A DNA stretch of 64,000 nt from contig JAOSKE010000002.1 in the NCBI GenBank assembly GCA_027493775.1, forward strand, positions 407,435 to 471,434, read 5' to 3'. Position numbers and translations under genes: made by a program. Source of the DNA: Kiritimatiellia bacterium (GTDB taxonomy: Bacteria > Verrucomicrobiota > Kiritimatiellia > CAIVKH01). Shown piece after piece: positions 41,423 to 58,809 of the stretch (position 1 is its first letter; each line of letters opens with the position of its first letter). The notes beneath the pieces were generated by a model that ran no database searches, was not told where the DNA came from, and saw only the letters and a list, made by a program, of their open reading frames with translations.

Positions 41423-41880
41423 TTACGCATTAATGGCAATCATGGAGAAGACCATCACGAGTAGCGCAACCGTTTCCACGATGCCCAGCCCCATGAGATA
41501 ATTTCCAAAGCCCTTCCCCGTCTCCGCCTGCGAATCCGCTGCGGCAGCGCCAATCACGCCTTGGAACCAGGCGGAAAAGCCCATCGCCAGACCGCCGAAA
41601 ATACCGACGGCGATCAGCATCGGAAAGTCGCTCGGCGTCGCCTTGGCGACCTCGATCATCTTGTTCATCAAAATCATTCCGTAAATCGTCTGCGAGAGCG
41701 GGGCGCCAACGAAGGTTACAAGAATGAACGGCGCGGCTTTATTCTGCAAAAACACTTCTTCCACGCGCCCACCGCCGCGGCGCCGGCTGCACCGATTCCG
41801 ATTGCAGATCCTATCGCGCCAAAAGCCAACGCGCTCGCCGCACCAAATTTTCCCCAGCCGATCATCAGTTCAGGTGTCAT
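41423..41880 (-). CDS. atpK: V-type ATPase proteolipid subunit K; frameshifted near 41761
   Basis: N-terminal hairpin MTPELMIGWGKFGAASALAFGAIGSAIGIGAAGAAAVGAW (ATG 41880 after AAGGAG) is in one frame; the remainder (EEVFLQNKAAPFILV...LLVMVFSMIAINA) is ORF 41423-41764. Confidence 0.75.
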
Positions 41881-41905
41881 CGTTCAGTCTCCTTATAAAT
41901 TAATC

Positions 41906-43670
41906 TCAGTCTTCCGCCGTCTGCTCCGCGTCCAGCCGCCGGAAGGGTTTATATGCAAACCCCGCCCACGAAATGCCGCTGTGCGACGAGAACTCCAGCG
42001 TGATCAAACGCACGCCGTGCACCAGCACGCCCATAACGCAGAGCAATATATTCAGCGCATGTCCGGCAAAGAGGAGCAAGGCCGCAATCAAACCGGCCAC
42101 AATCCCCTTCACCCCGCCAGCAAGAATCATGGTGTTGAACGAGTTGGCAACCGTGTAACTCGCAGCGCCGACGGCAAAGAGACGGATGTAGGAAACAAGA
42201 TCCACGAAGTTGCTGACGAGGTTCAACGGAAGCATGACGTGATTGAACCACTCGCCCTTGAGGTCGCGTGGCGCGGTCATAAACAGCACAATCAGCACCA
42301 CACTCACAATAAACAGGGGAGCGAGCCAGCCCGGCATCGGCTGTCCCAACACGAAACTGCACGCGACAAAAAACATCGTCCAGGTGCTGCCGATCCAACC
42401 CAACTGCGCGAGCATTCGGGGGCTGTTCCAAATCCGCATTGCGTTCCACAGATGCGCCAGCGTGAGGTGAATGGCGCCCAAGAGGAAACTGAGAAACATG
42501 ATGTTGTTCCCGTCCTTCAACCAAGCGACTGTCATGTCGTTAAAGAAACGTCGGCAGCGCGCCCGCGCCGAACCAAGTGCCCGTTACAGTGCCCCAAAGC
42601 ACAGTGCAGAAACTCATAATATAGAGCAGGCGGAAGGGATAGGCGGGCGCTTTCGGCATCTTGCGCCGGGCCGCGAATGTCAGACCCATAAAAATCAATC
42701 CGTAGCCCGCATCGCCAACGATGATGGCGAAAAAGATGCTCAGAAAGAGCAAAAAGGCGGCGTTGGTATCAATCTCGCGATACCCCGGCAACACGCCCAT
42801 AAAATCGAGCACCGCCTTGATGGGTTGAACCCAGCGCGGATTTCGAATCAGTGTCGGCACCTCATCGCCTTCCGGCTCGGAAAGGACCAGACCCCAACCA
42901 TGGCGCGCTGCGGACGCGCGGAGCGCCTCGACGGAATCCGCCGGACAAAACCCACGCAAATACGCGAGGGAAGCTTCTGTGCCCATTCCTTCCCGCGCCT
43001 CCAGAAAGCGAACGGCATCTTCCGCGTCCAAGGCATACTTCTTCAGCAACCCTGCATCTCCCGCGCGTTGTTGCAATAGCTTTTCAGAGGCCGCGATCCG
43101 CGCATCGAGATCGCCGAGTCGCCGATCCAGTTCACTCAACGGCAATTCCGGCATCCGAAACTCATGCGCATCAAGCGAAATCGGCTCGCGGCCGATTGCG
43201 GCAAAATACACACCGCTCTTGTCTTCACGCAAAATCTGAATAGCCACCCCGTCCGGCGCATCCACGCGATGGCCAGCATTCGCGTGGAACAGGCGCACGT
43301 GAACGCCCTTCTTCGCCAGCGCTGCAATGGCCTGTGGATCAAATGTTCCGTACGGCGCGAGGCGGGCGCGCTCCTGCAAAAGCGACTCCCTTTCCTCGCG
43401 GCATTTTCGCGTCTCGTCGAGCACGCCCAAAATCCGTTCCACCATCAAATCGGCCGGTTCGCCGGACGAGGCCGTTCCCTCGTTTTCCGGAAGCGCATCC
43501 AACGCGCGCTTAACATTCGTACGTCGCGCGCGCGCCTGCTCGACATCCTTCCCCTCCGGTGCGCGCACCGAAACCAAATGCAACACGCCCCATTCACGCA
43601 GCGCTTCCAGCGTCGCTTCGCGTTCCGACGCGAGGCACAACAGGGTGAGGCTCTTCATCGGAACAATCAT
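41906..43670 (-). CDS. atpI: V-type ATPase subunit I; frameshifted at 42538-42541
   Basis: N-terminal soluble domain (ORF 42540-43670) and C-terminal membrane domain (ORF 41906-42535) are in adjacent frames; the junction ...GALPTFL/NDMTVAWLKD lies at a T-run. Confidence 0.8.
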
Positions 43671-44266
43671 GCCCCGACCTCCACCGACTTGCTCTTTGCA
43701 ATCTTCGCGCGCGCGACTTCCGCCACCTGCGCGTCGCCGATAAAAATACGGATGATTCGGATGTTCGATTGCGCCTCAGGAATCTTCACCTTCTCAAACA
43801 GGTTCACCCGCTGCGAGGTGGTTCGCAATTCTTCGCCCAATAAGCGGTGCTGTTCGGCGAGAATTTCATGTTCCACGCGAAGGCCGACCAATTGCTCGAC
43901 AGCCGCACGCCCGTCATCCACCCAGGCGTCCGTCGCGAGCAAATCCATCTTCACCGCCTCAAAGCTCACTTCCTGCAAAACCGGGATGTTCACGCCGGCG
44001 ATGTTCCCGCTGCCCGTCTTCACCGCCTTCAATCGCACCCACGCCGACAAATCCACCGGCTCGGCAAACAGGCGCACCCACGAGCGCATGCCCCGTTGCA
44101 AGCGCTCCATCTCGCCGCGCACTTCATCCATCCGCTGCTCAAGCTGTCGCATCTCCATCTGCAACTGCTGTTTTTTGAGCAGCAGCGTCGGGAGATAGCG
44201 CTTGAAGCGCCGCAGTGCATCGCGCTGCGCCTTTAGCTCGTTCTTGGTATGCTTGATCTTCGCCAC
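43667..44266 (-). CDS. atpD: V-type ATPase subunit D
   Basis: MAKIKHTKNELKAQRDALRRFKRYLPTLLLKKQQLQ... typical subunit D coiled-coil. Confidence 0.85.
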   Translation of the reverse strand: MAKIKHTKNELKAQRDALRRFKRYLPTLLLKKQQLQMEMRQLEQRMDEVRGEMERLQRGMRSWVRLFAEPVDLSAWVRLKAVKTGSGNIAGVNIPVLQEVSFEAVKMDLLATDAWVDDGRAAVEQLVGLRVEHEILAEQHRLLGEELRTTSQRVNLFEKVKIPEAQSNIRIIRIFIGDAQVAEVARAKIAKSKSVEVGA

Positions 44267-44282
44267 GGATTCGCTCTTTGGA

Positions 44283-45588
44283 TCAACCCTCGGATTTTTT
44301 CGGCCAGTATTGGTCCGTCATCTTGCCAGGAATACCGGTCTCCGTCGGCTCAAAGCAGTCCGCAAGGATGTGCCAGCCGAGGTCGAGCGCCTTTTCCAAC
44401 GGAATATTCACGCTCAGATCCATCATCTCGCGCTCAAAGCGCGCGCCGTACTTGAGCAACTTCTGATCCCACGCGCTCATCCGGAAACCCATCGCCTGCT
44501 TCTCCAGTGTTTCGCGATAGGACGCATAAAGCTGAATCATCGAGTTCATAATCGTGCGGTGATCCGCGCGCGTCTTGTCGTTCACCAACTGCTTCAGACG
44601 ACTGAGCGAACCGAACGGCTCGATGCGTCCGTTGCGCAGATAGAACTGCCCCTCGGTAATGTAGCCCGTATTGTCCGGCACCGGGTGCGTGACGTCATCG
44701 CCCGGCATCGTGGTCACCGCGAGAATGGTAATAGATCCGGCCGTATCGAAATCCACCGCCTTCTCGTAGCGCGCAGCCAACTGGCTATAGAGGTCACCCG
44801 GATAGCCGCGGTTCGACGGAATCTGCTCCATCGTAATCGCGATTTCCTTCATCGCGTCGGAGAAGTTTGTCATATCGGTCAGCAACACAAGCACGCGCTT
44901 GCTCTGCAGCGCAAACTGCTCCGCGACGGCAAGCGCAATGTCCGGCACCATCAAACACTCCACCGTTGGATCCGCAGCCGTGTGAACGAACAACACCGAG
45001 CGCGCCAACGCGCCCTGCTTTTCGAGCGTGTCGCGGAAATACAAATAATCGTCGTGCTTCAGCCCCATGCCGCCGAGAATGATGATGTCCACTTCTGCTT
45101 GCAGCGCGATGCGCGCAAGCAACGGGTTATACGGCTCACCCGCGACCGAAAAAATCGGGAGTTTCTGCGACTCGACGAGCGTGTTGAACACGTCAATCAT
45201 CGGCAGCCCCGTGCGCACCATGTTTCGCGGAATAATACGCTTCGCCGGATTGACGGACGGGCCGCCAATGGCGGTCATATTTTCTTCAATCGTCGGGCCG
45301 CGATCGCGCGGCTGACCAGAGCCGGTAAAGATGCGGCCCAACAACGCATCGGAAAACGGGACTTCCATCGGATGTCCGAGAAAACGCACCTGCGCATCCG
45401 TCGTGATGCCGCGACTGCCCGCGAACACCTGCAAGTACACGCGCTCGCCCTCGAGTCGAATCACCTGCGCCAACGAGGACCCCGTGTTCGGAGGTGACCT
45501 GCGCCAATTCGCGATAGCCGATTCCTTCCGCGCGCACCACAATGACGTTGCCCGCGATCTGTTCGATTTGTTGATACGTCTTATGCAT
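44283..45588 (-). CDS. atpB: V-type ATPase subunit B; frameshifted at G4/C4 run 45480-45483
   Basis: N-terminus [35 protein letters not shown] (ORF 45286-45588) and the rest ([26 protein letters not shown]... with the nucleotide-binding region) in ORF 44283-45542. Confidence 0.8.
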
Positions 45589-47317
45589 GAGCCGTCACCT
45601 CCGCGAGCATGTCTTCCGCGCGGCTTTCGAGCGTTTTGAATTCGGCGCCGTCCTGCGGCGTGCGGTTCCAGTCCTTTGTGAGCTGTGTCAGCTTTTGGAA
45701 AAATTGCCGTGCGGCATCCTTTTCTTCAAACGTCATCTGCATCTTGAGAACATCGTGAATGTGGTTGAACATATACTTTTGACGATCCGCTGACGTCGCA
45801 GCGTCCACATCGTGATACGCATCCTGCTGCAGATAGACCGAATCGAGATACTCCGCCTTCAGGTACACGACAAAGTCGTCAATGGATGTCCCCTCTTCGC
45901 CGACGACCTTCATCATCTGATTCACTTCACTTCCGCGCCGCAACGTGGAACGCGCAAACACGACTTGATCTTCCGGCACAACACCGTCGTACTTGCTCCA
46001 GGAATCCAGCGGCTGAATCGCCGGGAACCGGCGCGCATCCGAGCGTTCGCGCGACAACCCATGAAACGCGCCGACGACCTTCAGCGTGCTTTGCGTGACC
46101 GGCTCTTCAAAGTTGCCGCCCGCCGGACTCACCGTTCCTCCGATGGTGACCGACCCCGTCGATCCGTCGCGCAATCGCACCACGCCACCGCGCTCGTAGA
46201 ACGCGGCGATAACCGATTCGAGGTACGCAGGGAACGCTTCTTCACCCGGAATTTCTTCCAAGCGCCCGGACATTTCGCGCAGCGCCTGCGCCCAACGCGA
46301 CGTGGAGTCGGCCAGCAGCAGCACGTTGAGGCCCATCTGGCGGTAGTACTCCGCCAGCGTCACGCCCGTGTACACCGACGCCTCGCGCGCAGCGACGGGC
46401 ATCGAGCTGGTATTACAAATAATCAGCGTGCGCTCCATCAAACTGCGGCCCGTGCGCGGATCCTCCAAGTGCGGAAATTCGCGCAAGGTTTCCACCACCT
46501 CACCCGCGCGTTCGCCGCAGGCGGTGATAATGACGATGTCCACATCCGCGTGGCGACTCGTGATCTGCTGCAAAACCGTCTTGCCGGCGCCGAACGGACC
46601 GGGGATGCAATAGGTGCCGCCGCGCGATACCGGGAAGAATGTGTCTACAATGCGAACCTTCGTGACGAGCGGTTCCGTGGGACGCAAACGCTCCGTGTAC
46701 ACTTTGATCGGCAGCTTCACCGGCCAGCGCTGCATCATCGAAACGGAAATCGCGCGCCCCTGCTCGCCCTTCAATGTCGCAATGCCCTCCTCCACCGTGC
46801 GCTCGCCCGCGCCGACGATGGTCTCCACCGTGAACGTTCCGCGCAGCCGGAACGGGACCATGATTCGGTGTTCAAAAATGCCTTCGGGCACCGTTCCCAG
46901 CGTATCGCCCGCCTGCACAACATCACCCACCTTCACCTTGGGCGTGAAGGCCCATTTCGTGTTGCGATCCAACGCGGAAAGATACTTTCCGCGCTGTAGA
47001 AAAAAGCCGCTCTCCTCCGCCAACTCGGGCAGCGGGTTTTGCAAGCCGTCATAAATGGCGCCGAGCAGACCGGGGCCCAATTCAACGCTCAGCAGTTCGC
47101 CGGTGAAATCCACCGCATCGCCCACGCGCAAATCGCCCGTGTCTTCGAACACTTGCAGCTCTGCGATGTTGCCGCGAATTCGAATCACCTCCGCCTTCAA
47201 GCGAAGGTCGCCACTCATCGCATAGGCCACCTCGTTTTGCGCAACTGGCGAAAAGAATTCAACGCGAAGCAGGTTTCCGTTGATCCCTGTAATTTTACCC
47301 TGATGTGTCGTTTCCAT
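45581..47317 (-). CDS. atpA: V-type ATPase catalytic subunit A
   Basis: 578 aa with the Walker A motif GPFGAGKT and typical A-subunit N-terminal barrel; apparently intact. Confidence 0.9.
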
Positions 47318-47328
47318 CCGTTTCGTTC

Positions 47329-47878
47329 CTATTCGTTAACCGATGCCGTCGCCGATGCGCGAACGCGCGTCACCGTCTCTTCCAAGCGCGAATAACCGGA
47401 CTCCTCCGTCAGTCGCGCCCAGCGATGAAGCATGCTCAATTTCACTGCGTACGCAAATACGTACGGCTTGCCAAAAGGCGTCGTGCGCGCCCAGTCATCC
47501 AACAACGCCCAGCGAGAGCGATCCAACGACTGCTCGCGCTCAAGAGGATTCGATTTTGCCGTCGCCTCAACCACGGCGCGCTCCGCCTCGCTGCTAAACG
47601 GGACGCCGGCGTTCTGATACTCGCCCGCATCCACGCCCAGCTTCGCCAGCGCGCGCGCGCGCAAGCGCCAGGCCCAATTGTCGCTCCGCCAGCAACCAGC
47701 GCCGCACAAAGCGGTCTGTCACGGCGGCGCCGCTCGTTCCCAGAAGAATCTCCAACTGATCGCCGAACTCATCCCCTACGATGCGCCGGGCATCCGCCGA
47801 AAACGCCTCCATCGTCATGGGCGGCTCCCCCGTGAACGATAGGGTCGGCAAACTGGCCACAAAGTAGTAGAGGCTCAT
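47329..47878 (-). CDS. hypothetical protein in the V-type ATPase operon; frameshifted in (GC)7 repeat 47649-47662
   Basis: ORF 47594-47878 (MSLYYFVASLPTLSF...LGLALARARA) and ORF 47329-47709 (...LAKLGVDAGEYQ...) join across a GC-dinucleotide repeat. Its position between atpE and atpA matches the Chlamydia-type operon. Confidence 0.55.
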
Positions 47879-47880
47879 GG

Positions 47881-48504
47881 CTACCCATTCTCGCGCGCGG
47901 CCTGATAAACGATCGCGGCGAGGTGTGGACGCAGAAAACTCGAAAGCGCCTCCGCAATCGCCTCATTGGTAAAGCTGTGTTCAATGCGGCCATTCGCGAG
48001 CTTCACGTTGAAACCCTTCAAGATGCGCTCGTCGCCTTTCACTTCGAGGCCCTTGCCCAACTGCTCGCGGTACTTCGATTTGAAGAACGCGACCAATCGC
48101 TCCTGGTCCTTCGGGTTGACCATCACTTCGATCCGATGCTCGCGATCCGGTCGGGACCAGTACGATTCGACGAGCTTCTCCAACATCGTCTGTACCGTCT
48201 CGTACGTCAGCGAGGCGTCGGACGCCTCTTTCGCGAGACGACCGACGATGTTCTCTACGCCCCGCCCGACCGTGATCAACAAATCGCGCGATGCCTGCCG
48301 GAGTGTTTGCTGGCTGCGCGCCGTGAATTGCTCCGCGTCGCGCTCGGCCTTTTCCCGATACTCTTTTGCCTGCTTCTCCGCCTCCGCGACAATCTCTGCG
48401 GCTTGCCTCTTCGCCTTCGCGACGAGATCCGCTGCCTGCTTTTCGCCGGTGTCCACGGCCTCGCGCTGGATGCGCTCGATCAGATGTTGCAATTCTTCAG
48501 CCAT
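47881..48504 (-). CDS. atpE: V-type ATPase subunit E
   Basis: MAEELQHLIERIQREAVDTGEKQAADLVAKAKRQAAEI...; ATG 48504 with AAGGAG 9 nt upstream. Confidence 0.8.
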   Translation of the reverse strand: MAEELQHLIERIQREAVDTGEKQAADLVAKAKRQAAEIVAEAEKQAKEYREKAERDAEQFTARSQQTLRQASRDLLITVGRGVENIVGRLAKEASDASLTYETVQTMLEKLVESYWSRPDREHRIEVMVNPKDQERLVAFFKSKYREQLGKGLEVKGDERILKGFNVKLANGRIEHSFTNEAIAEALSSFLRPHLAAIVYQAARENG

Positions 48505-48592
48505 TGACGACCACTCCTTAATCTTGTCGCCATACCCTTTTCGAATAAAGGGCATCCCGACGTGAAAGACACGGGTGTTATAGGCAAGGATA

Positions 48593-48610
48593 TGGCAATT
48601 GAAAAGCCAA
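48593..48610 (-). promoter_or_regulatory. possible sigma-54-like or palindromic element upstream of the V-type ATPase operon
   Basis: Minus strand reads TTGGCTTTTCAATTGCCA: GG and GC at -24/-12 spacing but a weak -24 box (TGGCTT); also TGGC...GCCA inverted ends. About 90 nt upstream of the atpE ATG. Confidence 0.25.
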
Positions 48611-48663
48611 ACTCGCTCTGATCAAAAATAGGGTTTTCCCCGTAGAAAGCAGTTTATCCGCTT

Positions 48664-50344
48664 TTACGGAACCCTGAAGTTTGCGGTCAACTCAACGACC
48701 TCTTTTCCGACGGCCTCTATGACCGATTCGTTTTGCGGGTCGTTGAGCACGCGCGAAATGAATCCCGCAATACGGGCCATTTCCTTTTCCTTCATTCCGC
48801 GCGTGGTCAACGCGGGAGTGCCGAGACGAATGCCCGAAGTGACAAAGGCGCTCTTGGTATCGAACGGAATCGTGTTTTTATTGACCGTGATGTTCGCCCT
48901 ATCCAGCGCTACCGCCGCGTCCTTTCCGCTAAGCCCCGCAGCGCCGACATCCACGAGCATCAGGTGATTGTCCGTGCCACTGGAGCAAATCCGGAAGCCT
49001 GCATCCATCATCCCCTTCGCCAAGGCCCGCGCATTGGCAACGATCTGTTTCGCGTAGTCCGCGAACGACGGCTGCAGTGCCTCGCCAAAGCAAATCGCCT
49101 TCGCAGCAATAATATGCATCAGCGGCCCGCCCTGAATGCCGGGGAATACCTGCTTATCGAGATCTGCCGCAAATTTTTCGCGGCACAAAATCAAGCCACC
49201 GCGCGGGCCGCGCAGCGTCTTGTGCGTCGTCGAGGTGACAAAGTCGGAATAGGGAACCGGAGCTCGGATGCGCACCGCCCGCGACCAACCCCGCGATGTG
49301 CGCCATATCCACCATCAGCAACGCGCCGACACTGTCCGCAATCTCGCGGAAACGCTTGAAGTCAATGATGCGGGAATAGGCGCTCGCGCCGGAGGTGATT
49401 AGTTTCGGACGATGCTCCTTCGCAAGACGCTCGATCTCGTCGTAGTCAATCTGCTCCGTGTCCTGCCGCACGCCGTACGGAATCACCTTATAGTAACGGC
49501 CCGAAAAGTTCATCGGGTGACCGTGGGTCAGGTGTCCGCCATGCGAGAGATTCATCGCGAGAATCGTGTCGCCCGGTTGCAGCACTGAAAAATAAACCGC
49601 CATATTGGCCTGACTGCCGCTGTGCGTCTGCACATTCGCGTGCTCCGCGCCGAACAACTGCGTCACGCGGTCAATTGCAAGCTGCTCCGCTTTGTCCACA
49701 CACTCGCAGCCGCCGTACCAGCGCTTCTTGGGATAACCCTCGGCGTACTTGTTCGTCATATTGCAGCCAGCAGCCTGACGAATCGCGCGGCTCGTGTAGT
49801 TTTCGGAAGCAATCAGCTCCAAATTCCGGCGCTGCCGAACGCCCTCTTCCGTAATCGCTTCGAAGATCGGTGAATCGTGCTTGGCGATGGAGTCCAATCC
49901 CCCGGCAATGTTGCTCGATTGTTCAATCTTTTCGATGCGGCGAACGTGGCGGCCGCCCTCAAATTCTGTCGCAAACCACTTCTCTAAAATTGCGGGAATC
50001 TCCGCAGTCGGCGTCGTCGCCGCACCAAAGACGATGATATTTGCATTGTTGTGCAAACGTGCAAGTCGTGCCATTTCGGGCGAAACGATCAAAGCGGCGC
50101 GAATGCCGGGATAACGGTTCGCAGTGATGCTCATCCCCACGCCGGTCTTGCAGATCAACAAGCCCTGATCAAATTCGTGATCCGCAACGCGACGCGCAAC
50201 GACGCTCGCGTAGTCAGGATAGTCCACCGACTCCGGCCCAAAAGCGCCGATGTCCTCAACCTCAACGCCACGCTTTGTGAGCAGGTCCTTAACCAACGCC
50301 TTCATCTCCACGCCGCCGTGGTCGGAACCAATAATCATCTTCAT
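48664..50344 (-). CDS. glyA: ribose-5-phosphate isomerase B fused to serine hydroxymethyltransferase; frameshifted near 49264
   Basis: Residues 1-145 are RpiB ([11 protein letters not shown]...[15 protein letters not shown]...[13 protein letters not shown]), running without stop into SHMT ([11 protein letters not shown]...[11 protein letters not shown]). The SHMT C-terminus ([25 protein letters not shown]...) is in the frame of ORF 48664-49275. Confidence 0.75.
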
Positions 50345-50844
50345 TGTTCTTCGCTCTCCGTCTTCCGTTTCAATTGTTTCGTATCTTCCAAAATCGTCAG
50401 CAGCACATCCGCGATCGCGCGGTCAATTCGGTCGCGCGTGAAGCGATACACATCCAGCGACATCCCGATCGGGTCTGGAATATCCTCCATCCGCCGATCC
50501 GTGCCGAATTCCGTCAGCAGGCGCACCCGATCCCGCGCCTCGGGGAACATCGAAAGCACCGCCTGTGCATGACCGCGCGTCATCACAATAATCCAATCGG
50601 ACTCTTCCACCAACTTTTGCGTCAGTGGCTGGCTGCGGTGCTGGCGGACATCAATCTGCCACTCGCGCAGTGCAACCAACGCCTCCGCGCTCGCGGGCAC
50701 GCCCGTCAGTGCGGCGACGCCGGCGGATTTTACGCGCCAACCCGGACGGTTTCCGAGCCGATGCCGCAAAATCGCCTCCGCCATCGGGCTGCGACAAATG
50801 TTGCCCGTGCAGACAAACAAAACTTGATGTGTAGCTTCAGCCAT
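50341..50844 (-). CDS. low-molecular-weight protein tyrosine phosphatase (or arsenate reductase-like)
   Basis: P-loop motif [17 protein letters not shown]. Start at ATG 50844 preceded by GAGAGAGGGAAA; the ORF track start 50916 runs through the palindromic operator. Confidence 0.8.
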
Positions 50845-50878
50845 TTCGTAAAAGCGTTTCCCTCTCTCAACCAAAAAC

Positions 50879-50925
50879 TTCCAAGGGTTGGAAGAACCGT
50901 TCCGCGCGACTTCCAAGGCTTGGAA
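50879..50925. promoter_or_regulatory. pair of 15-bp palindromic sites TTCCAA-N3-TTGGAA (candidate operator) upstream of the PTP/rpiB-glyA operon
   Basis: TTCCAAGGGTTGGAA (50879-50893) and TTCCAAGGCTTGGAA (50911-50925), centres 32 bp apart, 35-81 nt upstream of the minus-strand start at 50844. Confidence 0.55.
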
Positions 50926-50944
50926 CTTTTGCCCACAGTCGGCG

Positions 50945-52264
50945 TTACAACGCGGACGATAGCGGGCCGGGCCGGATATTCAAGGCTTTGAGTCCCAACA
51001 AAACATCCACGGCCCGCTGCAACGCCGCATCGCCGCGAATCCGGTCGCGCAACGCGAGGTCGGAATCTTCCTGATCCAATCGAATCCGACGATCCACCCC
51101 CAGCTCCGGCTCGTACTCAACTTTGCCGGGGCCCGCAGGCAGAATCACGGTCGGTTTCACGCCCGACCGCCCGTCGAGCACGATGCCATCTCCCACAAGC
51201 AGCTTCCGCGTTGCAATGCAAAGTGACTCGCTGTCAGAAATGGAAATGACATCGCGGATGGCGGGGTCGCCCGCAGTCTCGCGCCCGATCACGAGCGTTC
51301 CGCGCAAGCTGCCTGCCGCCGTCGCAGCCAGCGCTTCCGCCGCGCCGGAAGTGTGTTCGTCCACGAGAACCATCACAGGCAAATCAATCGGCGCGGATCC
51401 ACCGGCTTGATAGTTCGTCAGCGTATTGCCGTCGCGATCGAGAAATGAAAACAGCGCCGAACCGGGCGATGCAAACGCGCCGGCAATCTGCGCCGCGCTG
51501 GCAACGTCGCTCCCATCTGCACCGCGCAAATCGAGAATGCCTCCCGCGAGTTTTGCGTCCGCCCACGCCTGCAACTGCGTCAACACCCCCTCGCCGGAAC
51601 CCGCATTCAATCCATTTACTCGCGCATAGCCGATGTCGCGCGGCCACATTTCCGAAACTTCGAACAGGGGGAACGGCGACAACACCCGCTCAACGCGAGT
51701 GGTGGCGGGAGCATTCGTGCCGCGCACGTAAATCAGCTCCGTGCCGCCCGCCGTATGGCCGCGCAACTGGCGCAACGCATCGCTTAACGTGACGTTGGTG
51801 GCCGGCGCGCCCTGAATGGAAATAATGCGATCTCCCGTGCGCAAACTCTCCCCAAGGTCGGCTGGCGCGGCGACGACCACCGGCGTTGCATTCGAAATGG
51901 TCAGGCGGATATCCGTGTGGTAATCCACGCCCGCTTGTTCGTGTTGCCAGTGCTCCAACTCAGCCGCGGTGAAAAGTCGCGCCTGCGGATCCACGATGCG
52001 CGCAACACATTCGTAGAGCGGCGCACGTTCCTCGTCGCCGGTCAGTTGAATGCCGTGCGCCGCCAGATTCGCCAACAGCGCATCCACGTCGGCAACCAAT
52101 GGGTGTTTTGCGGGATCAGGCTCCGGCGTCGTCGCGACAACTTCTGCGTCGAGTTCCAAGACCGGCTCCGCAGCGAGATTCTCCTCAGCAACCTGCGCAT
52201 GAAGGCCGACAGGCAAAAGAAGTACGCCGAAGAGAAACAGCAGTATTTGTCTTAGTTCATTCAT
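50945..52264 (-). CDS. S41-family peptidase (C-terminal processing protease-like), secreted
   Basis: Signal peptide MNELRQILLFLFGVLLLPVGLHA; S41-like catalytic region (...VLVDEHTSGAAEALA...). Confidence 0.65.
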   Translation of the reverse strand: MNELRQILLFLFGVLLLPVGLHAQVAEENLAAEPVLELDAEVVATTPEPDPAKHPLVADVDALLANLAAHGIQLTGDEERAPLYECVARIVDPQARLFTAAELEHWQHEQAGVDYHTDIRLTISNATPVVVAAPADLGESLRTGDRIISIQGAPATNVTLSDALRQLRGHTAGGTELIYVRGTNAPATTRVERVLSPFPLFEVSEMWPRDIGYARVNGLNAGSGEGVLTQLQAWADAKLAGGILDLRGADGSDVASAAQIAGAFASPGSALFSFLDRDGNTLTNYQAGGSAPIDLPVMVLVDEHTSGAAEALAATAAGSLRGTLVIGRETAGDPAIRDVISISDSESLCIATRKLLVGDGIVLDGRSGVKPTVILPAGPGKVEYEPELGVDRRIRLDQEDSDLALRDRIRGDAALQRAVDVLLGLKALNIRPGPLSSAL

Positions 52265-53544
52265 AGCAAAAGCGCCCGCCATGCAATATCCTTCCGATAG
52301 TGTGCGTTCGCAAAGCTAATTTTTTCGGCCGCCCCGTATGCCCGCGACACCGCATCGCGCAAACTCGCCCCCATTGCGGTCACGCCGAGAACGCGACCGC
52401 CGTTTGTGACCACTTCCCTGTCCTTTAATAGAGTCCCCGCGTGGAACACCACAGCGCTCTGTTGTTGCGCGGCTGCTGACAGCCCGGAAATTGTGTCGCC
52501 ACACGCATACGAGCCGGGGTAGCCGCCGGCCACCATTACGACGCAGGCACAGGCTTCGTCCTTCCACCGTACAAGCTCATCGCGCAGCTCGCCGTCCGCG
52601 CACGCATCCAGCGCGGGGAGCAAATCGCCGTCCCAACGCGGGAGAATCGCCTGAATTTCGGGATCGCCGAAGCGACAATTGAACTCAAGCACCCTCATAC
52701 CACGGGCGGTCAGCATCAATCCCGCGTACAACACGCCGCGATAGATGATGCCGCGGTTGCGAAGCTCCCTCAGCGTCGGTTCAAAAACAGTCTTGCGAAC
52801 AACTGGCCACAACTCGTCGCTCACGACAGGCGCCGGTGAATAGGCCCCCATCCCGCCCGTGTTTGGCCCCTGATCGCCATCGAAAACACGTTTGTGATCC
52901 TGCGCAGAGGCGAGCATCACAAGATGCTCGCCATCGGTCAGCGCGAGGATGGATGCTTCCTCTCCTTCGAGAAATTCTTCAATCACAACTTGCGCGCCGG
53001 AGCTGCCAAACGCGCCGCGCACCATCATTTCTTCAATCGCCGACTCCGCCGCCGTCAGCGTCTCGCAAATCACAACGCCCTTCCCCGCCGCTAGTCCGTC
53101 GGCTTTCACAACCAATGGCAGTTGCGCCCCACGCGCGTAAATCAGCGCTTCGCCGACTTCGGTGAACGAGGCCGATTTGGCTGTCGGCACACCCGCCTTG
53201 AGCATCACGTCTTTGGAAAAAACCTTGCTGCCTTCGATCTGAGCGGCGGCCTTGTTCGGCCCGAATACGCGCAAGCCTTCGGCCTGCAATCGGTCTGTGA
53301 GCCCGGCGCACAAGGGGGCTTCCGGCCCGATGACGACGAGGTGCGGCCGATGTTCAATTGCCCACGCGACAAGTCCTTCGCAATCCGTCGCGGCAAGATC
53401 AAGGTTCGTTGCGATTTCCGCCGTTCCCGCGTTTCCGGGCGCGCAGACCAAGCGCGGTTGCGCACTGTCCTGCGCGAGCTTCCACGCCAACGCGTGTTCG
53501 CGGCCCCCGCCGCCGACAATTAAAATCAGAGGATGGCTGTTCAT
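52261..53544 (-). CDS. purD: phosphoribosylamine--glycine ligase
   Basis: MNSHPLILIVGGGGREHALAWKL... ATP-grasp pattern; 427 aa. Confidence 0.9.
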   Translation of the reverse strand: MNSHPLILIVGGGGREHALAWKLAQDSAQPRLVCAPGNAGTAEIATNLDLAATDCEGLVAWAIEHRPHLVVIGPEAPLCAGLTDRLQAEGLRVFGPNKAAAQIEGSKVFSKDVMLKAGVPTAKSASFTEVGEALIYARGAQLPLVVKADGLAAGKGVVICETLTAAESAIEEMMVRGAFGSSGAQVVIEEFLEGEEASILALTDGEHLVMLASAQDHKRVFDGDQGPNTGGMGAYSPAPVVSDELWPVVRKTVFEPTLRELRNRGIIYRGVLYAGLMLTARGMRVLEFNCRFGDPEIQAILPRWDGDLLPALDACADGELRDELVRWKDEACACVVMVAGGYPGSYACGDTISGLSAAAQQQSAVVFHAGTLLKDREVVTNGGRVLGVTAMGASLRDAVSRAYGAAEKISFANAHYRKDIAWRALLL

Positions 53545-53636
53545 AGGGGCGCGAGTGTAGGAAGGCGCGCCTCAAATAACAGATAAAATCAGGTTAGGAA
53601 AAGACGAAGGCGAAGAATCGTCAACGGTGGCGCTAA

Positions 53637-54798
53637 TTAGAAAATATCTATTTCGACATCGTCCGAACTTTCGTTCGCCACACGCGCGGGAGTCTCATCG
53701 CGACCGGACGGAAGGCGGAACGAGGAAGGCGCCTTGCCCGTGCGTTTATATTCTTTGAAGTCCTGAACGAGATCGAGCAACTGAACGCGCTGCAAATATC
53801 CCTCGTCCATCGTCTTGTAGTTCACGATGTGTGAGTAGGGAATGTTGTCCAAGAGCGCCGGGTTCCGCATCTTCTTGCGGTTCACATAATTGCCGCCCTG
53901 TTGCTCGTTCCACTTCAACAATTCGCGCGTGGAAATGCCGTCGGCCCACATGCAATCGGTCGGCACCAACTGACGCTGGATACCCGCGTCCTCGCTACTC
54001 CACTCCAGGCGGCTGACGGCGTGAACGAAGACTTCGCAGAATGCGTACTTCACGTCATAGGAGAGTCCGGCAAGCATCTCAATCTGAACCTTGTCTTCCT
54101 GCTGCGGGTGTTCCGTCAACTGGTCGAGCACGAGTTTGTCGTTGATCCACATCCGTGCGCCATCGTCGGATTGTAGATAGAGGGTGTAGTGGCCGCTGCG
54201 TTTCGGAACAATGCGCCCGGTCCAGATAACGGAGAATAGGTCGGGCTTAACGCGGCCCGGCCAGGGACTGGACTCGCCCCAGTTTTTATTCAGCGTCTCG
54301 TCAATTCGCATCAGTGTTGGGCCGGTGAAGTCCACGTTCGCAAAATAGGAGCCGAGCAAACCATTTTCTGTCGCGCGCGAGCCGTAGCGACCTTTCAGCG
54401 TGCCCATGGATTGCGAATCGCCACCGAGCGCCTTGAAGGTGAGTGGGGAGTCGGACGGCAGGATACTCGGCAGCTCATCCACCATCGAAGGCGTTTCCGG
54501 CGTCACATCCGCGAGTTTCTGCGCGATATCGTCGAGAAGCGGCTGCGTATCACTTTCGCTGATCACGTCGTCGTTGAGATCCTGCAACGGCTCAATCGGG
54601 TCCCAGTTCCTTAATGTCGTCCAATTCAAGCTGTTCATCCTGAACGAGCTTCGTCTCCAAATCCGGCGTCGTACTGCTCGAGCTGAAGACCAGAAAGTGC
54701 AAAAGCGCATAAAACAAAAGGATGTGGGCCAGCACAGAAATGGCTGGGCCGCTTGAGCGCTGCAAAAATCGTATGAAAGGGCTGTTTTTATTCATCAC
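53637..54798 (-). CDS. membrane-anchored PA14 domain protein; probably frameshifted near 54595-54605
   Basis: ORF 54592-54798 gives an N-terminal TM anchor plus acidic linker ending ...DDIKELGPD-stop; ORF 53637-54710 continues the acidic linker (...IEPLQDLNDDVISESD) in another frame and contains a PA14-like domain (GLLGSYFANVDFTGP...HYTLYLQSDDGARMWIND). Confidence 0.6.
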
Positions 54799-54922
54799 GT
54801 TTCCCGATTTGTTAACCTCTACGATAGTTTAACGAGAATTGCACTTCCGAAATTACGGGCGCCGAAAGAATTTGCCGTGTCCAGCCTCGCAGCGAGCGCG
54901 ACACTATGCTAGTGGTTAACGA

Positions 54923-55798
54923 ATGCGGCTCGGGCCACTCATAATTTGTCTGACACTCGCCGCGAGTTCCGTCGCGCGGGCGCAAATTCCGCGCGACGAC
55001 TTTCGTTTTCGTGTGCCACTGGAGGGAACGCTGACTAGCGGCGCGCTCTACCGGGTACTCATCCCCGGCCCCATTTTTTCCGGCAGCCAATCGTTTCCAG
55101 CCGATTTGCGTCTGTTGGACGAACATGGAGCCGAGTGGCCGTTCTTCATCCAACAAAGCGACGACGACGAATCGCTGACCCCCACCCCGCTGAGCCAACT
55201 TTCGCCGCCGACCGACTACGTGCCGCAGGAAGACATTCAGTCCGTCTTCTTCGAGCCGCAGTTTGAGCACCAGCCACTGCGCTTCCTTGTACTCAATGTC
55301 GAAAACAAGGAGTTCACGCGCCCGATCAAAGTCTTCGGGCGACACTCCGACCTCGCCCGCTGGCGCTTGGTGGGAAATGGCGCGATTCACCGAATTGAAG
55401 GACTGGAGCGCAACAAGATCAACCTCCACAACAACGGATTCCGTTACCTGCGCCTCGACGTGTATAACTATGAAGAGCCGGAGCTGGTGATCACCGACGC
55501 GCATGCGTTGGCCGAAACGCAGTTCGTCGTCACCCGCGCCGCGAGCAGCGGTCGGGCGTGGATTTACTTCGGCTCCGACACGTTTTTTCTTCCGCGCTTC
55601 GATCTGCAACACTCCCTTTCGCGCACGGAGCTGACGAATGCCACCCCCGTCAGCGCCGGGGCGCGTGAACGGAACCCCTACCGGCTGACTCAGGAAATTT
55701 GGCTCTACGCCCGCCTCTTGCTCTACGTCGTTCTCGACGGCGGCGTAATTTTTATTGCCCTGGCGTGGATGAAAAAATTCCGAACGCGGTCCGGTTGA
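54923..55798 (+). CDS. hypothetical secreted protein with C-terminal TM anchor
   Basis: Signal peptide MRLGPLIICLTLAASSVARA and C-terminal hydrophobic helix (LLLYVVLDGGVIFIALAWM). Confidence 0.5.
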   Translation: MRLGPLIICLTLAASSVARAQIPRDDFRFRVPLEGTLTSGALYRVLIPGPIFSGSQSFPADLRLLDEHGAEWPFFIQQSDDDESLTPTPLSQLSPPTDYVPQEDIQSVFFEPQFEHQPLRFLVLNVENKEFTRPIKVFGRHSDLARWRLVGNGAIHRIEGLERNKINLHNNGFRYLRLDVYNYEEPELVITDAHALAETQFVVTRAASSGRAWIYFGSDTFFLPRFDLQHSLSRTELTNATPVSAGARERNPYRLTQEIWLYARLLLYVVLDGGVIFIALAWMKKFRTRSG

Positions 55799-55808
55799 TT
55801 CACGCAAA

Positions 55809-56744
55809 TTAGCGGCTTTTCCCCGCTTCCAACAGTTCCAGCGCAGCATCAATAACGGGCGCAGCGCATTGATCGTTTAGATTCAATCCGTCACGAACGA
55901 CACGTTGTTGTTTTCCGTATGGCCCGGTCTTGATCGGATCGGTCGGGCCAAAAATTGCAACAGTGGGAATTCCCACCGCGGCGGCGAGGTGCATGGGGCC
56001 GGAGTCCACCGTGATGAGCAGGTCGAGGTCACGCAGCAGGCCGCCCAACTCCAGGATGGAAGTCCGACCGCACCAATTCTGAGCGCTTTCCCCGATCAGC
56101 TCCGTCAGCGCCGCGCAGGCTTCCGCATCGGCCGGCCCGCCGAGCACGACAAAACTCGCCTGCGCTTTTGGGCCCAGCGCTCGTGCGACTTCGGCAAACC
56201 GTTCAATCGGCCAGTTCTTCTCCGTTCGCCGCGAGCAGGGCAGTAATCCGATGCGGGGATGTGGAAGATCCAACGAAATTTTGGGAAATTTTACCGGGAA
56301 CTCAACCGGCGCATCGGGCAGGCCAAGGAATCGCGCGGTATCCAAACACTCCTCTACCGCGTGACGTTTTTTGTTCGTCGGGCCGGACACCGCGTCGTAA
56401 AAAATATGCGAGCCTTCGCGACTGAACGACGGGCCGATTCTTCGCGCTGCGCGGGCAGCGCGGATCACCATCGCGCTTTTGAGCAGCCCCTGAAAATCGA
56501 GCGCGAGATCGTATTCCTCTTTGCGAAGCGCCGCAAAAAATGCGCTCGCGTCACGAACAAACGAATGGCGCGGATAGGCAATCGCACGACTCACCGGGAC
56601 GAACGCCGCAACGAGGTCGAGATACATTCGGTGACAGACCCAGTCCACTTCCGCGCCCGTGTGCCGCTGAATCAGATTCACCGCAGGGAGCGCGTGAAAC
56701 AAATCGCCAAGCGAGCTGAGTTTGACGACGAGGATTCGCTTCAT
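55809..56744 (-). CDS. glycosyltransferase family 9 (heptosyltransferase-like)
   Basis: MKRILVVKLSSLGDLFHALPA... and C-terminal ...DSGPMHLAAAVGIPTVAIFGPTDP typical of GT9. Confidence 0.8.
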   Translation of the reverse strand: MKRILVVKLSSLGDLFHALPAVNLIQRHTGAEVDWVCHRMYLDLVAAFVPVSRAIAYPRHSFVRDASAFFAALRKEEYDLALDFQGLLKSAMVIRAARAARRIGPSFSREGSHIFYDAVSGPTNKKRHAVEECLDTARFLGLPDAPVEFPVKFPKISLDLPHPRIGLLPCSRRTEKNWPIERFAEVARALGPKAQASFVVLGGPADAEACAALTELIGESAQNWCGRTSILELGGLLRDLDLLITVDSGPMHLAAAVGIPTVAIFGPTDPIKTGPYGKQQRVVRDGLNLNDQCAAPVIDAALELLEAGKSR

Positions 56745-56769
56745 AATTCGCACGGAATCAGACTACGCC

Positions 56770-57708
56770 CTATTTTTTTACCGACGCCAACAGGAGGAGC
56801 ATGACCGCCTTCTGCGCGTGCAGACGATTTTCCGCCTGATCGAAAACCACGGACTGCGGGCCGTCAATGACCTCGGCCGTCTGTTCACAACCCCGCACCG
56901 CCGGGAGGCAGTTCATAAAAATCGCGTCCTTCTTCGCCCGCTTCATCAGCGCGGCATTCACCTGATAGGGCGTGAACATCTTGATACGCGAGTCCTGCTT
57001 GTGCTGTGGAATGTGATAGCTCATCCAGGAATCGGTATAGACCACATCTGCGCCCACCACCGCCTCTGCGGCGTCGCTTGTGAGAACGATTTTTGCGTCG
57101 GTCTCTTTTGCAATTTCCTTTGCGCTTGCGACTACCGTATCGAGCGGCTCGTACTCTTCGCCCTTCGGGCAACCGACGCTAATGTCCATGCCCACTTTCG
57201 CACAGCCGAACAGCAGCGAGTGAGTCATGTTGTTGTTTCCATCGCCAAGGTACGCGAGCTTGATGCCCTTCAATGCGCCCTTTTTCTCCCGAATTGTTTG
57301 AAAATCCGCAAGAATCTGGCACGGGTGCTCGTAGTTCGTCAGCGCATTGATCACCGGCACGCCCGCAAGCCGCGCCATCTCTTCAATGTGCGCCTGCTCA
57401 TAGAGACGGCCCATAATGATATCCACGTAACGACTCACGACACGGACCAAGTCGGCGACGTTCTCTTTGCCGGAGCTTAGCGGCGAAGTTGCAAGGTCGT
57501 AAAAAATGGCGTGACCGCCCATTTGCGTCGCGCCGGTTTCGAACGACACGCGGGTGCGCAGGCTCGGCTTTTCGAAAATCATCATCAGCGTCTTGCGCCG
57601 CATCGAATCGTGATATTCTTCCGGCTTTGCCTTGACCCTGTCGGCCAGATCAACGATTTCCAACAACTCTGCGGTGGACCAATTCTCAAGTGTAATCAGA
57701 TGTTTCAT
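56770..57708 (-). CDS. argF: ornithine carbamoyltransferase-family protein
   Basis: Carbamoyltransferase motifs SLRTRVSFE (variant of STRTR), HPCQILAD and CLPAVRG; 312 aa. Substrate specificity is inferred only. Confidence 0.7.
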   Translation of the reverse strand: MKHLITLENWSTAELLEIVDLADRVKAKPEEYHDSMRRKTLMMIFEKPSLRTRVSFETGATQMGGHAIFYDLATSPLSSGKENVADLVRVVSRYVDIIMGRLYEQAHIEEMARLAGVPVINALTNYEHPCQILADFQTIREKKGALKGIKLAYLGDGNNNMTHSLLFGCAKVGMDISVGCPKGEEYEPLDTVVASAKEIAKETDAKIVLTSDAAEAVVGADVVYTDSWMSYHIPQHKQDSRIKMFTPYQVNAALMKRAKKDAIFMNCLPAVRGCEQTAEVIDGPQSVVFDQAENRLHAQKAVMLLLLASVKK

Positions 57709-57717
57709 TTTGCGCCT

Positions 57718-58809
57718 CTAGCTCATCAGGTCTTCATAATAGCTGTTAATTTCGTGATCGCGCTCAAAAATCATTAAAATCAGCGTCGCGCGCACCCACA
57801 TTCCATTCCGCACCTGCCGCCAGTATTTCGCGCGGGGGTCCGCGTCCACCTCCGGCGCAATCTCGTGACGTCGCGGAAGCGGGTGCAAAATGATGGCCTT
57901 CTCCTTGAGCACGGAAAGATGTTCCGCGCGCAGATAGAACTTCGTGATGTCAACTGCCCCGCTCTCGCCCGCCTGATCCCACTCGTCCTGAATGCGGGTC
58001 ATATAGACTGCATCCAGCTCCGGCAGCACCTTTTCAAAGTCCGACGTGACCTCGTATTCCATCCCCGCCGCGTCGAGTTTTTCCAAAATATCCGATCCAA
58101 TTTGCAGTTGTTCGGGCGCGACAAAATACTGCTTCACTCCGGGATAGTGCCGCAGCAGCAGTGAAAGAGAACGCACGGTGCGCCCACGCAGAAGGTCGCC
58201 GACAAACGCAATTTTTGCGCCCTCCAAACCGCCGCGTCGAATTTCGAGACTTCGCTGGAGCGAGTAAATATCCAGCAGCGCCTGAGTCGGATGCTGATCC
58301 TTCCCCGACCCCGCATTGATCACCGGCACCGGACGATCCGTTCCGGAGAGCATCCATGCGATGCGCTCCGCAAACCCGCCCTGCGGGTGGCGCATAATGA
58401 TGAGGTCGAAGTAGGAGCTGAACGTACGGACGGAATCCTCCTGCGACTCACCCTTGACCTCCGACGATGTCCGCGCGTCGCGCACCTCCGCCGGTTGAAT
58501 TCCGAGGATTTGGCACGCGGCATAAAAAGAAAGGAACGTTCGCGTGGAGGGCTGCGCGAAATACAACATCGCGCGTTTCTCCGAAAGAAGGTCTTGTAAA
58601 AACTTCATCCCTCCGCGCGTCTTCCCGATCTTCCGCATCTTCGTCGCTGTATCCACGATGCGATCGAGCAGCGGGCGATCAAACTGCTCCGCAATCAACG
58701 CGTGATACGGCCGGCCGTTGTGATTCAGCAACGGCCCCTTTTCCTTCGGCGCCATCGCATGAAATGTCTCCCAAGGAATCCCCCGCAATGCCTTATGTCT
58801 AAAAACCAT
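57718..58809 (-). CDS. pyrB: aspartate carbamoyltransferase catalytic subunit
   Basis: Motifs PSTRTFLSF, HPTQALLD and HPLPRR. The N-terminal extension is uncertain (alternative ATG at 58755). Confidence 0.75.
   Translation of the reverse strand: MVFRHKALRGIPWETFHAMAPKEKGPLLNHNGRPYHALIAEQFDRPLLDRIVDTATKMRKIGKTRGGMKFLQDLLSEKRAMLYFAQPSTRTFLSFYAACQILGIQPAEVRDARTSSEVKGESQEDSVRTFSSYFDLIIMRHPQGGFAERIAWMLSGTDRPVPVINAGSGKDQHPTQALLDIYSLQRSLEIRRGGLEGAKIAFVGDLLRGRTVRSLSLLLRHYPGVKQYFVAPEQLQIGSDILEKLDAAGMEYEVTSDFEKVLPELDAVYMTRIQDEWDQAGESGAVDITKFYLRAEHLSVLKEKAIILHPLPRRHEIAPEVDADPRAKYWRQVRNGMWVRATLILMIFERDHEINSYYEDLMS

Follow-up and report, generated by a model that had tools for sequence, protein, structure and literature searches.

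A single gene encodes an RpiB–SHMT protein

Positions 48664-50344 of the minus strand, in the 64-kb window analyzed here (64,000 nucleotides (nt) of a Kiritimatiellia genome, contig JAOSKE010000002.1 of assembly GCA_027493775.1), very probably constitute one real gene for a bifunctional enzyme, in which ribose-5-phosphate isomerase B (RpiB) is joined through a linker of fixed length to serine hydroxymethyltransferase (SHMT), the frameshift at 49261 being an assembly error. The fusion is neither a product of misassembly nor a new architecture, since it has been in print since 2008. Once an extra T at 49261 is removed, the gene encodes an RpiB–SHMT protein of 559 amino acids (aa).

An earlier note on this DNA, made from the letters alone, had proposed that RpiB and SHMT are fused in one reading frame, and both the open reading frames (ORFs) with their Pfam matches and the corrected 559-aa protein bear this out. 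In the uncorrected window, the junction peptide quoted in that note lies in a 396-aa minus-strand ORF (49154..50344), and the C-terminal half of SHMT lies in a different frame (ORF 48664..49275). Along the first of these ORFs, the Pfam match to LacAB_rpiB spans residues 4-140 (profile positions 2-138 of 138), the NCBIfam rpiB equivalog TIGR01120 is matched at 164.3 bits against a cutoff of 138.65, and the SHMT match begins at residue 154, split across the two frames. On the corrected protein the SHMT profile (PF00464) is matched at 544 bits over positions 2-399 of 399.

Read from its start, the gene opens with a complete RpiB domain (residues 1-142, 49919..50344, minus strand, as are all parts of the gene), delimited by PF02502, TIGR01120 and an ungapped alignment to 3he8 and 1o1x. 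The linker (residues 143-149, SSNIAGG, 49898..49918) holds a run of five G (G5, 49899-49903) and was placed by the alignment of junctions and by identity with an independent contig, L001. The N-terminal part of SHMT follows (residues 150-361, 49262..49897, aligned to PF00464, 3pgy and 1kkj), with Y200, E202, Y210, H271, D346 and H349. At 49261 the spurious T on the coding strand (AGC-T-CCG), absent from L001, shifts the SHMT frame. The C-terminal part (residues 362-559, 48667..49260, PF00464 profile positions 217-399) carries H374, the pyridoxal phosphate (PLP)-binding K375, R381 and R506, and the gene ends with a TAA stop codon at 48664..48666. At 57.5%, its G+C content equals that of the whole window (58%). 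Within the 64 kb, no further RpiB or SHMT was found.

An independent assembly confirms the junction and corrects the frameshift

L001 is a Logan short-read contig of the same strain, assembled from run SRR11288142, and is the source contig of protein P0001. Over 21.7 kb (window positions 38662-60344), it differs from the window by 0 mismatches and 9 single-base insertions or deletions (indels), located in the window at 60308, 54602, 49261, 48623, 48538, 47648, 45480, 42542 and 41747. The T at 49261 is the sole difference within the fusion gene: positions 49262-50344 contain none, so that both assemblies agree on the G5 run, the RpiB/SHMT junction and the start region. Deleting this T restores the SHMT frame, and the resulting 559-aa protein is 100% identical to P0001. 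Of the remaining 8 indels, 2 are intergenic and 6 fall inside genes that are called intact in L001, namely purL, a PA14-domain gene, DUF2764 and the V-type ATPase subunits B, I and c.

Because L001 lacks the extra T, shows no substitutions and keeps these genes intact, the window is an error-bearing copy, its SHMT frameshift is technical and the fusion is genuine. The assembly carries approximately 1 indel per 2.4 kb, and broken ORFs in the window should consequently be read as assembly errors and not as pseudogenes. The warning in the earlier note that this assembly contains many indels was therefore well founded, with 9 single-base differences over 21.7 kb. Its concern that an indel at the G5 run or the junction had created the fusion is answered by the identity of L001 from 49262 to 50344, where L001 shows neither a stop nor a start codon between the domains. 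The frameshift at 49261 had not been mentioned there.

Could the frameshift be real, and SHMT truncated in a pseudogene? The window frame does break after residue 361, shortly before the lysine that binds PLP. However, the extra T is missing from L001, which has no substitution across the 21.7 kb; the remaining 8 differences are single-base indels as well, a pattern of technical error and not of decay; and the frame downstream of 49261 is perfectly conserved. On this error pattern (9 indels, 0 substitutions, genes intact in L001) we reject a real pseudogene, which we consider highly improbable. That an indel erased an rpiB stop and a glyA start, the true genome having two genes, verges on the impossible: 9 single-base indels do occur over 21.7 kb, one of them inside the fusion gene, and many other phyla keep adjacent unfused rpiB and glyA in the same frame, but the junction, identical in L001 and free of indels throughout 49262-50344, is also in frame in the 92%-identical contig L002 and in 120/120 homologues.

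Both domains retain their catalytic residues

We numbered the RpiB residues from an ungapped alignment to 3he8, and we take the residues of both domains to have the roles established for the enzymes of E. coli, C. thermocellum and B. stearothermophilus. The window protein has the RpiB residues D8, H9, C65, H98, R132, H133 and R136, none of which varies in the 120 fused homologues (120/120); it also has T67 and N99. By its residues (C65 with the Asp-His pair, H98 and the C-terminal Arg), the domain is a Cys-type ribose-5-phosphate isomerase B. On the SHMT side, Y200, E202, Y210, H271, D346, H349, H374, K375, R381 and R506 are invariant in the same 120/120 homologues, and K375 corresponds in the alignment to the TTTHK lysine of 1kkj, which forms the Schiff base with PLP. 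Judged by these residues, both domains appear complete and catalytically intact.

The window protein resembles the solved standalone enzymes closely in each half. Over residues 1-142 it aligns without gaps to the standalone RpiB proteins 1o1x, 3he8/3hee and 1nn4/2vvr (E-values of 8e-42 to 1e-33), with Cys65, Asp8/His9, His98 and Arg132/136 conserved. In contrast to the window protein, 1o1x stops one residue past the equivalent of residue 142 and the other solved chains a few residues past it; in the window protein, the C-terminal helix of RpiB runs through the 7-residue linker into SHMT. Similarly, the standalone SHMT (GlyA) proteins 3pgy, 1kkj and 1dfo align along their full length to residues ~150 to 556 (E-values of 1e-156 to 1e-170), with the PLP lysine motif and the substrate-binding residues conserved. 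The difference here is that the SHMT N-terminus of the window protein is not free, as it is tethered to RpiB. In solved SHMTs, the free N-terminal arm contributes to the dimer interface; therefore, the oligomer must accommodate the RpiB module attached there.

A linker of nearly constant length joins the domains

Solved RpiB chains align up to residue 141-142 of the fusion and solved SHMT chains from residue 150-154, which leaves a linker of ~7 residues, SSNIAGG. The sequence LDSIAKHD that follows occupies the place of the native SHMT N-terminus (MSYITKQD in 3pgy). The description of the fusion as having no linker was thus nearly right, the exception being these ~7 residues between residues 142 and 150. 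The junction sequence differs among the 120 fused homologues, but its length hardly changes: RH (of GGRH) and xLIASEN are 42 aa apart in 133/139 Kiritimatiellia-type proteins, as they are in the window protein, and 40 or 34 aa apart in Verrucomicrobiae-type proteins. An AlphaFold2 (AF2) monomer model gives RpiB a predicted local distance difference test (pLDDT) score above 90, and gives the linker and the SHMT N-terminal arm scores of 33-59, falling below 50 at residues 147-149; the predicted template-modelling (pTM) score is 0.63. The fixed length of the linker hints at a defined quaternary arrangement.

A single ORF could nonetheless yield two proteins in vivo, either by internal initiation at the SHMT N-terminus or by proteolysis of the linker. 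The codon of residue 150 is TTG, falls at the position of Met1 in the alignment with standalone SHMTs and follows GGGGGA, and the predicted confidence of the linker is low. Nevertheless, this codon varies in relatives (CTG, CCG, ACT, ACG, GCG, AAT and others) and is not kept as a start, so no conserved internal start codon exists at the SHMT N-terminus among them; in addition, no spacer separates the G-run from the TTG, and a conserved length would be unexpected for a linker that is simply cut. An internal start for a separate SHMT was rejected on the grounds that the start codon is not conserved, and we regard the production of two proteins as very unlikely.

The fusion belongs to a conserved and previously described family

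The architecture, which the earlier note believed to be undescribed, turned out to be on record. Hou et al. (2008, Biol Direct 3:26, PMC2474590) reported that Methylacidiphilum infernorum V4 has an 'unusual' protein, Minf_1669, comprising low-molecular-weight (LMW) phosphatase, RpiB and SHMT domains. Hundreds of such proteins are on file at NCBI, under the name 'ribose 5-phosphate isomerase B', and at IMG, under 'glycine hydroxymethyltransferase'. The search of protein databases for RpiB–SHMT architectures that the note had proposed gave a uniform result: all of the 120 best matches carry PF02502 and PF00464. An N-terminal LMW phosphatase domain (LMWPc, PF01451) is also present in 74/120, giving three-domain proteins of ~655-745 aa, and the other 46/120 relatives are two-domain proteins like that of the window. 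The named sources of the fused matches are metagenome-assembled genomes (MAGs) of Kiritimatiellia, 'Verrucomicrobia', Pontiellaceae, Lentisphaerae/Victivallales and Verrucomicrobiae.

To this we added a junction-profile scan of one genome per GTDB species, whose loci are a sample of the taxonomic range. Among the matches listed, at least 13 loci of other species have RpiB and SHMT in a single in-frame ORF that was checked in the DNA (L003, L004, L005, L006, L007, L009, L011, L013, L015, L016, L017, L020 and L027), and at least 2 of the fused loci are triple fusions. Orthologues are thus not always separate; had they been, this would have spoken against the fusion. The fused ORFs among these matches come from Verrucomicrobiota MAGs, a MAG of the Planctomycetes-Verrucomicrobia-Chlamydiae (PVC) group, Pontiella, Verrucomicrobiales, Akkermansiaceae, Akkermansia sp. 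and Victivallales. A search seeded with an Akkermansia-type protein gave more fused proteins, mostly partial, labelled Luteolibacter, Pedosphaera, Limisphaerales and Chthoniobacteraceae. In a library of representatives at 50% identity, 45 representatives were found at E<=1e-30, mostly spanning the junction, a count that is a rough lower bound as fragments dominate it. Taken together, the fusion family is conserved across Verrucomicrobiota sensu lato, that is, Kiritimatiellia, Lentisphaeria, Verrucomicrobiae and Methylacidiphilum.

Minf_1669, likewise from a member of the Verrucomicrobia, has RpiB and SHMT in one polypeptide, and its exact three-domain architecture is shared by the nearest relatives of the window protein (P0002-P0009, 73-86% identity). 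We liken it to the window protein by its published domain description and not by its sequence, and it is itself known from sequence alone. It differs in that the window polypeptide has two domains, the phosphatase being a separate gene with a 4-nt overlap, split off via a 1-nt deletion.

Some members of the family carry unexpected labels or annotations. A fused RpiB–SHMT ORF (L020, 2596-4131) lies on a 4-kb contig labelled Coriobacteriales, and a partial protein, P0326, is labelled Xanthomonadales; these non-PVC labels could reflect mis-binning, horizontal transfer or independent fusion. Within Akkermansia, the locus of one MAG (Akkermansia sp., L015, 3677-5410) is fused, and two proteins of Akkermansia sp. 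(P0353 and P0367, 406-410 aa) are annotated as SHMT only, with 86-89% identity to L015 over the SHMT part. The fusion state may be variable within the genus, or start sites may have been miscalled. Finally, an SHMT gene of Elusimicrobiota (L082, 3386-5266) is preceded by a 208-residue open frame that has no Pfam match and may be an N-terminal extension or an open non-coding frame.

A phosphatase of the same family has recently split off

Directly upstream of the fusion gene, on the same strand, lies the gene of an LMW phosphatase that belongs to the same fusion family and had gone unmentioned in the earlier note. As called in L001 (9471-10004), it encodes 177 aa from an ATG (50341..50874 in the window), and its open frame reaches a TTG at 50916. 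PF01451 is matched at 113 bits against a cutoff of 23.2 (E-value of 1.6e-32), and the product shares 74% identity with the LMWPc domain of P0002, a triple fusion. Its TGA stop codon overlaps the rpiB ATG in the sequence ATGA (50341..50344); such stop/start overlaps are typical of translational coupling.

The closest relative of the window, L002, shows 92% DNA identity to it and encodes P0002, a 741-aa LMWPc–RpiB–SHMT protein with 86% identity to the window protein. L002 and the window are collinear, sharing two genes of the ornithine/aspartate carbamoyltransferase (OTCase/ATCase) family, purD, an S41 peptidase gene and the V-type ATPase operon. The window and L001 share a gap of one base against L002, 11 nt before the rpiB ATG (AAGACGGAG-AGC versus AAGACGGAGAAGC; 50355..50356, minus strand). 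Because of this 1-nt deletion, the phosphatase frame runs into the TGA and is separate from RpiB–SHMT. The window protein thus shares the junction and the synteny of the LMWPc–RpiB–SHMT family, without having the phosphatase in the same polypeptide.

In a neighbour-joining tree of the RpiB–SHMT portion of 120 proteins, P0001 is the lone two-domain member inside a three-domain clade, and at least 5 switches by fusion or fission are needed across the tree. Moreover, one cluster at 90% identity holds both 726-aa and 557-aa members. Based on these switches, the mixed cluster and the deletion relative to L002, the link to the phosphatase appears to be evolutionarily labile and to have been broken recently in this strain.

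The P-loop of the phosphatase, CTGNICRS, fits the motif C-X5-R-(S/T), with Ile at position X5. Across the LMWPc domains retrieved, this position is Ile in 44 and Val in 34 of 83 P-loop matches, and the loop of the window phosphatase and of the LMWPc domains of P0002-P0118 can be written CTGN[I/V]CRS. A Thr at X5 is the determinant of specificity for phosphoarginine (pArg) over phosphotyrosine (pTyr) in phosphatases of the YwlE/PtpB type (PMC8001253), and this Thr is absent from the window phosphatase. Since X5 is aliphatic (Ile/Val) and not Thr, the enzyme is probably not of the pArg type despite its ywlE-like gene position; the residue points to a pTyr type.

The fusion would have arisen by compaction of a conserved gene string

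Outside the Verrucomicrobiota, the matches listed include many loci in which rpiB is followed by an adjacent, unfused glyA, among them loci of Selenomonadaceae, Bacillota, Marinimicrobia, Nitrospiria, Omnitrophota, Pelagibacteraceae, Rhodospirillales, Acidimicrobiia, Ignavibacteriota and Planctomycetales. In loci of several unrelated phyla, L018 (~931-935), L019 (~4183-4187), L012 (~4177-4181) and L022 (~933-937), glyA starts 0-3 codons past the rpiB stop and in the same frame, as illustrated by L019 (...KKYTWEDA*MDGRSLAEVDPEI); the scan favours loci with rpiB and glyA in the same frame, and their frequency is not representative. Loss of one rpiB stop codon would yield a fusion with a linker of approximately the observed length.

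Unfused operons with the same gene order, orientation, tight packing and co-transcription are known from Bacillaceae and from the Mycoplasma mycoides derivative JCVI-syn2.0. They differ from the window in encoding separate polypeptides and, in Bacillaceae, in the spacer between rpiB and glyA: three Bacillaceae loci (L042, L044 and L075) have the order LMWP–rpiB–(~650 nt)–glyA. We take this spacer to hold ywlG, which matches the order ywlE–ywlF–ywlG–glyA of B. subtilis. In JCVI-syn2.0, rpiB (_0800) lies directly upstream of glyA (_0799), and transposon insertions in rpiB are tolerated only where read-through into glyA is possible (PMC6755753).

Other welds occur in the same string. Fusions of TsaC/YrdC (Sua5_yciO_yrdC) to LMWPc lie directly upstream of rpiB in L003 (2658-3749), L008 (2661-3743), L036 (2607-3698) and L047 (2637-3716), the hosts being a Verrucomicrobiota MAG, a Planctomycetales MAG and two Omnitrophota MAGs. 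As in the family of the window protein, neighbouring genes have been joined, and the phosphatase can evidently join either neighbour; unlike in that family, its partner is TsaC, an enzyme of N6-threonylcarbamoyladenosine (t6A) synthesis, and not RpiB–SHMT. Of these four loci, L003 has RpiB fused to SHMT, and L008, L036 and L047 encode the two separately. A third architecture, LMWPc–SHMT without RpiB and with a spacer of ~45 aa, was found in two Chthoniobacterales loci (L034, 2813-4615; L035, 3353-5233).

The string tsaC–LMWP–rpiB–glyA is thus conserved, tightly packed and welded in different combinations. Our model suggests that many phyla keep this string, often with the rpiB stop just before an in-frame glyA start, and that loss of this stop would have welded RpiB and SHMT, so that the fusion would represent a compaction of the string. 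The later 1-nt deletion in this strain would then have turned the phosphatase domain back into a separate gene. We infer the origin by stop loss from the arrangement of these sequences.

A bifunctional enzyme is the most likely reading

With no catalytic residue of either domain varying among the 120 homologues, the enzyme is most likely bifunctional. Each domain would catalyze its normal reaction, the interconversion of ribulose 5-phosphate and ribose 5-phosphate by RpiB, and that of serine plus tetrahydrofolate (THF) and glycine plus 5,10-methylene-THF by SHMT. Substrate channelling is unlikely, since the two reactions share no intermediate. The benefit more likely lies in the obligatory 1:1 co-expression and the co-assembly of two homo-oligomeric enzymes, whose products would converge on purine and thymidylate synthesis: ribose 5-phosphate (via phosphoribosyl pyrophosphate), glycine and one-carbon (C1) units carried by THF. 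The purD product, glycinamide ribonucleotide synthetase, uses glycine. We infer that the fusion likely couples the supply of ribose 5-phosphate, glycine and one-carbon units.

Several points weigh against this picture of a conserved bifunctional enzyme. RpiB and SHMT share no metabolite, and the selective advantage is thus argued from context. The AF2 monomer gives no confident inter-domain geometry, and co-assembly of the domains is consequently a conjecture. No chain with both an RpiB and an SHMT domain is present in the PDB, and the literature on rpiB/glyA fusions, on fusions of LMW phosphatase to Rpi and on Minf_1669 yielded the 2008 genome paper only, with no enzymatic or structural study. 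Regarding the breadth of the family, the scan provides no enumeration, and the Kiritimatiellia-type and Akkermansia-type junctions differ in both length and sequence; given this difference, the two types may stem from one ancestral fusion or from several.

A bolder proposal, which we consider unlikely, is that RpiB and SHMT (together with the LMW phosphatase in relatives) form a defined hetero-domain oligomer, in which RpiB dimers bridge SHMT dimers and allow allosteric cross-talk between pentose-phosphate and one-carbon metabolism, with the phosphatase acting not on proteins but on a metabolite such as phosphoserine or a sugar phosphate. Such an oligomer would be compatible with the fixed linker, the repeated fusions of the phosphatase (to RpiB–SHMT, to SHMT alone and to TsaC) and the linkage to purD. 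If true, it would represent a self-contained module supplying glycine, C1 units and ribose 5-phosphate as nucleotide precursors.

It is also conceivable, although quite unlikely, that the RpiB-like domain is no longer an isomerase and serves SHMT as an oligomerization or regulatory module, for example as a bridge from dimer to tetramer or as a sensor of pentose phosphates. The constrained length of the linker does suggest a defined geometry, both RpiB and SHMT are established homo-oligomers, and the LMWPc–SHMT proteins without RpiB (L034 and L035) indicate that SHMT tolerates varied N-terminal partners. However, none of the RpiB residues for catalysis and phosphate binding varies in any of the 120 homologues, a constancy that a structural role alone would not maintain, and the domain scores above the rpiB equivalog cutoff.

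For Minf_1669 of the methanotroph Methylacidiphilum, Hou et al. proposed a dedicated coupling of C1 assimilation by the serine pathway to the pentose-phosphate pathway (PMC2474590). We consider this most unlikely for the family, as the fusion is widespread in non-methylotrophs (Kiritimatiellia, Lentisphaeria and Akkermansiaceae), one of that paper's reviewers questioned whether even M. infernorum runs the serine cycle, and the neighbours in the window are purine and V-type ATPase genes, not C1 genes.

Because family proteins are named after one of their two or three activities, glyA or rpi may be wrongly scored as missing in MAGs of Kiritimatiellia, Lentisphaeria and Verrucomicrobiae. The family also provides a clean natural case of repeated fusion and fission inside the conserved string tsaC–LMWP–rpiB–glyA, as well as a predicted bi- or trifunctional enzyme in which an isomerase is welded to a PLP enzyme by a linker of fixed length, with no metabolite in common. 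Its main value lies in annotation hygiene and in the evolution from operon to fusion, with the recent splitting-off of the phosphatase; it opens no long-standing question.

Genomic neighbourhood

The region upstream of the phosphatase gene (50945-58809, minus strand) contains, in order, two paralogues of the OTCase/ATCase family, a family-9 glycosyltransferase gene, the PA14-domain gene, purD and the S41 peptidase gene. These genes are tightly packed and mostly biosynthetic, with an opposite-strand gene between the glycosyltransferase and PA14 genes and a 22-nt overlap between purD and the S41 peptidase gene. Upstream of the LMWP–rpiB–glyA cluster, purD is present in the window and in L002, L004, L005, L008, L036 and L047, a linkage that recurs in other PVC and Omnitrophota loci. 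In L007, purD is nearby on the opposite strand; in the window, purL is also nearby.

Scanning positions 47500-54000 against Rfam gave no match with E<=1, and thus no ZTP, THF or glycine riboswitch, and a scan of 48300-52500 for promoters and terminators gave no signal above the expectation from shuffled sequence. Four plus-strand ORFs that overlap the region (48733-49359, 49622-49873, 50051-50572 and 50344-50991) have no Pfam match and were treated as GC-rich shadow ORFs.

Directly downstream of the fusion gene lies the V-type ATPase operon (~41500-48555, minus strand), comprising an E-like subunit, DUF2764 and then subunits A, B, D, I and c. Its proteins are 97-98% identical to those of L002, versus 76% for purD and 52% for the S41 peptidase.

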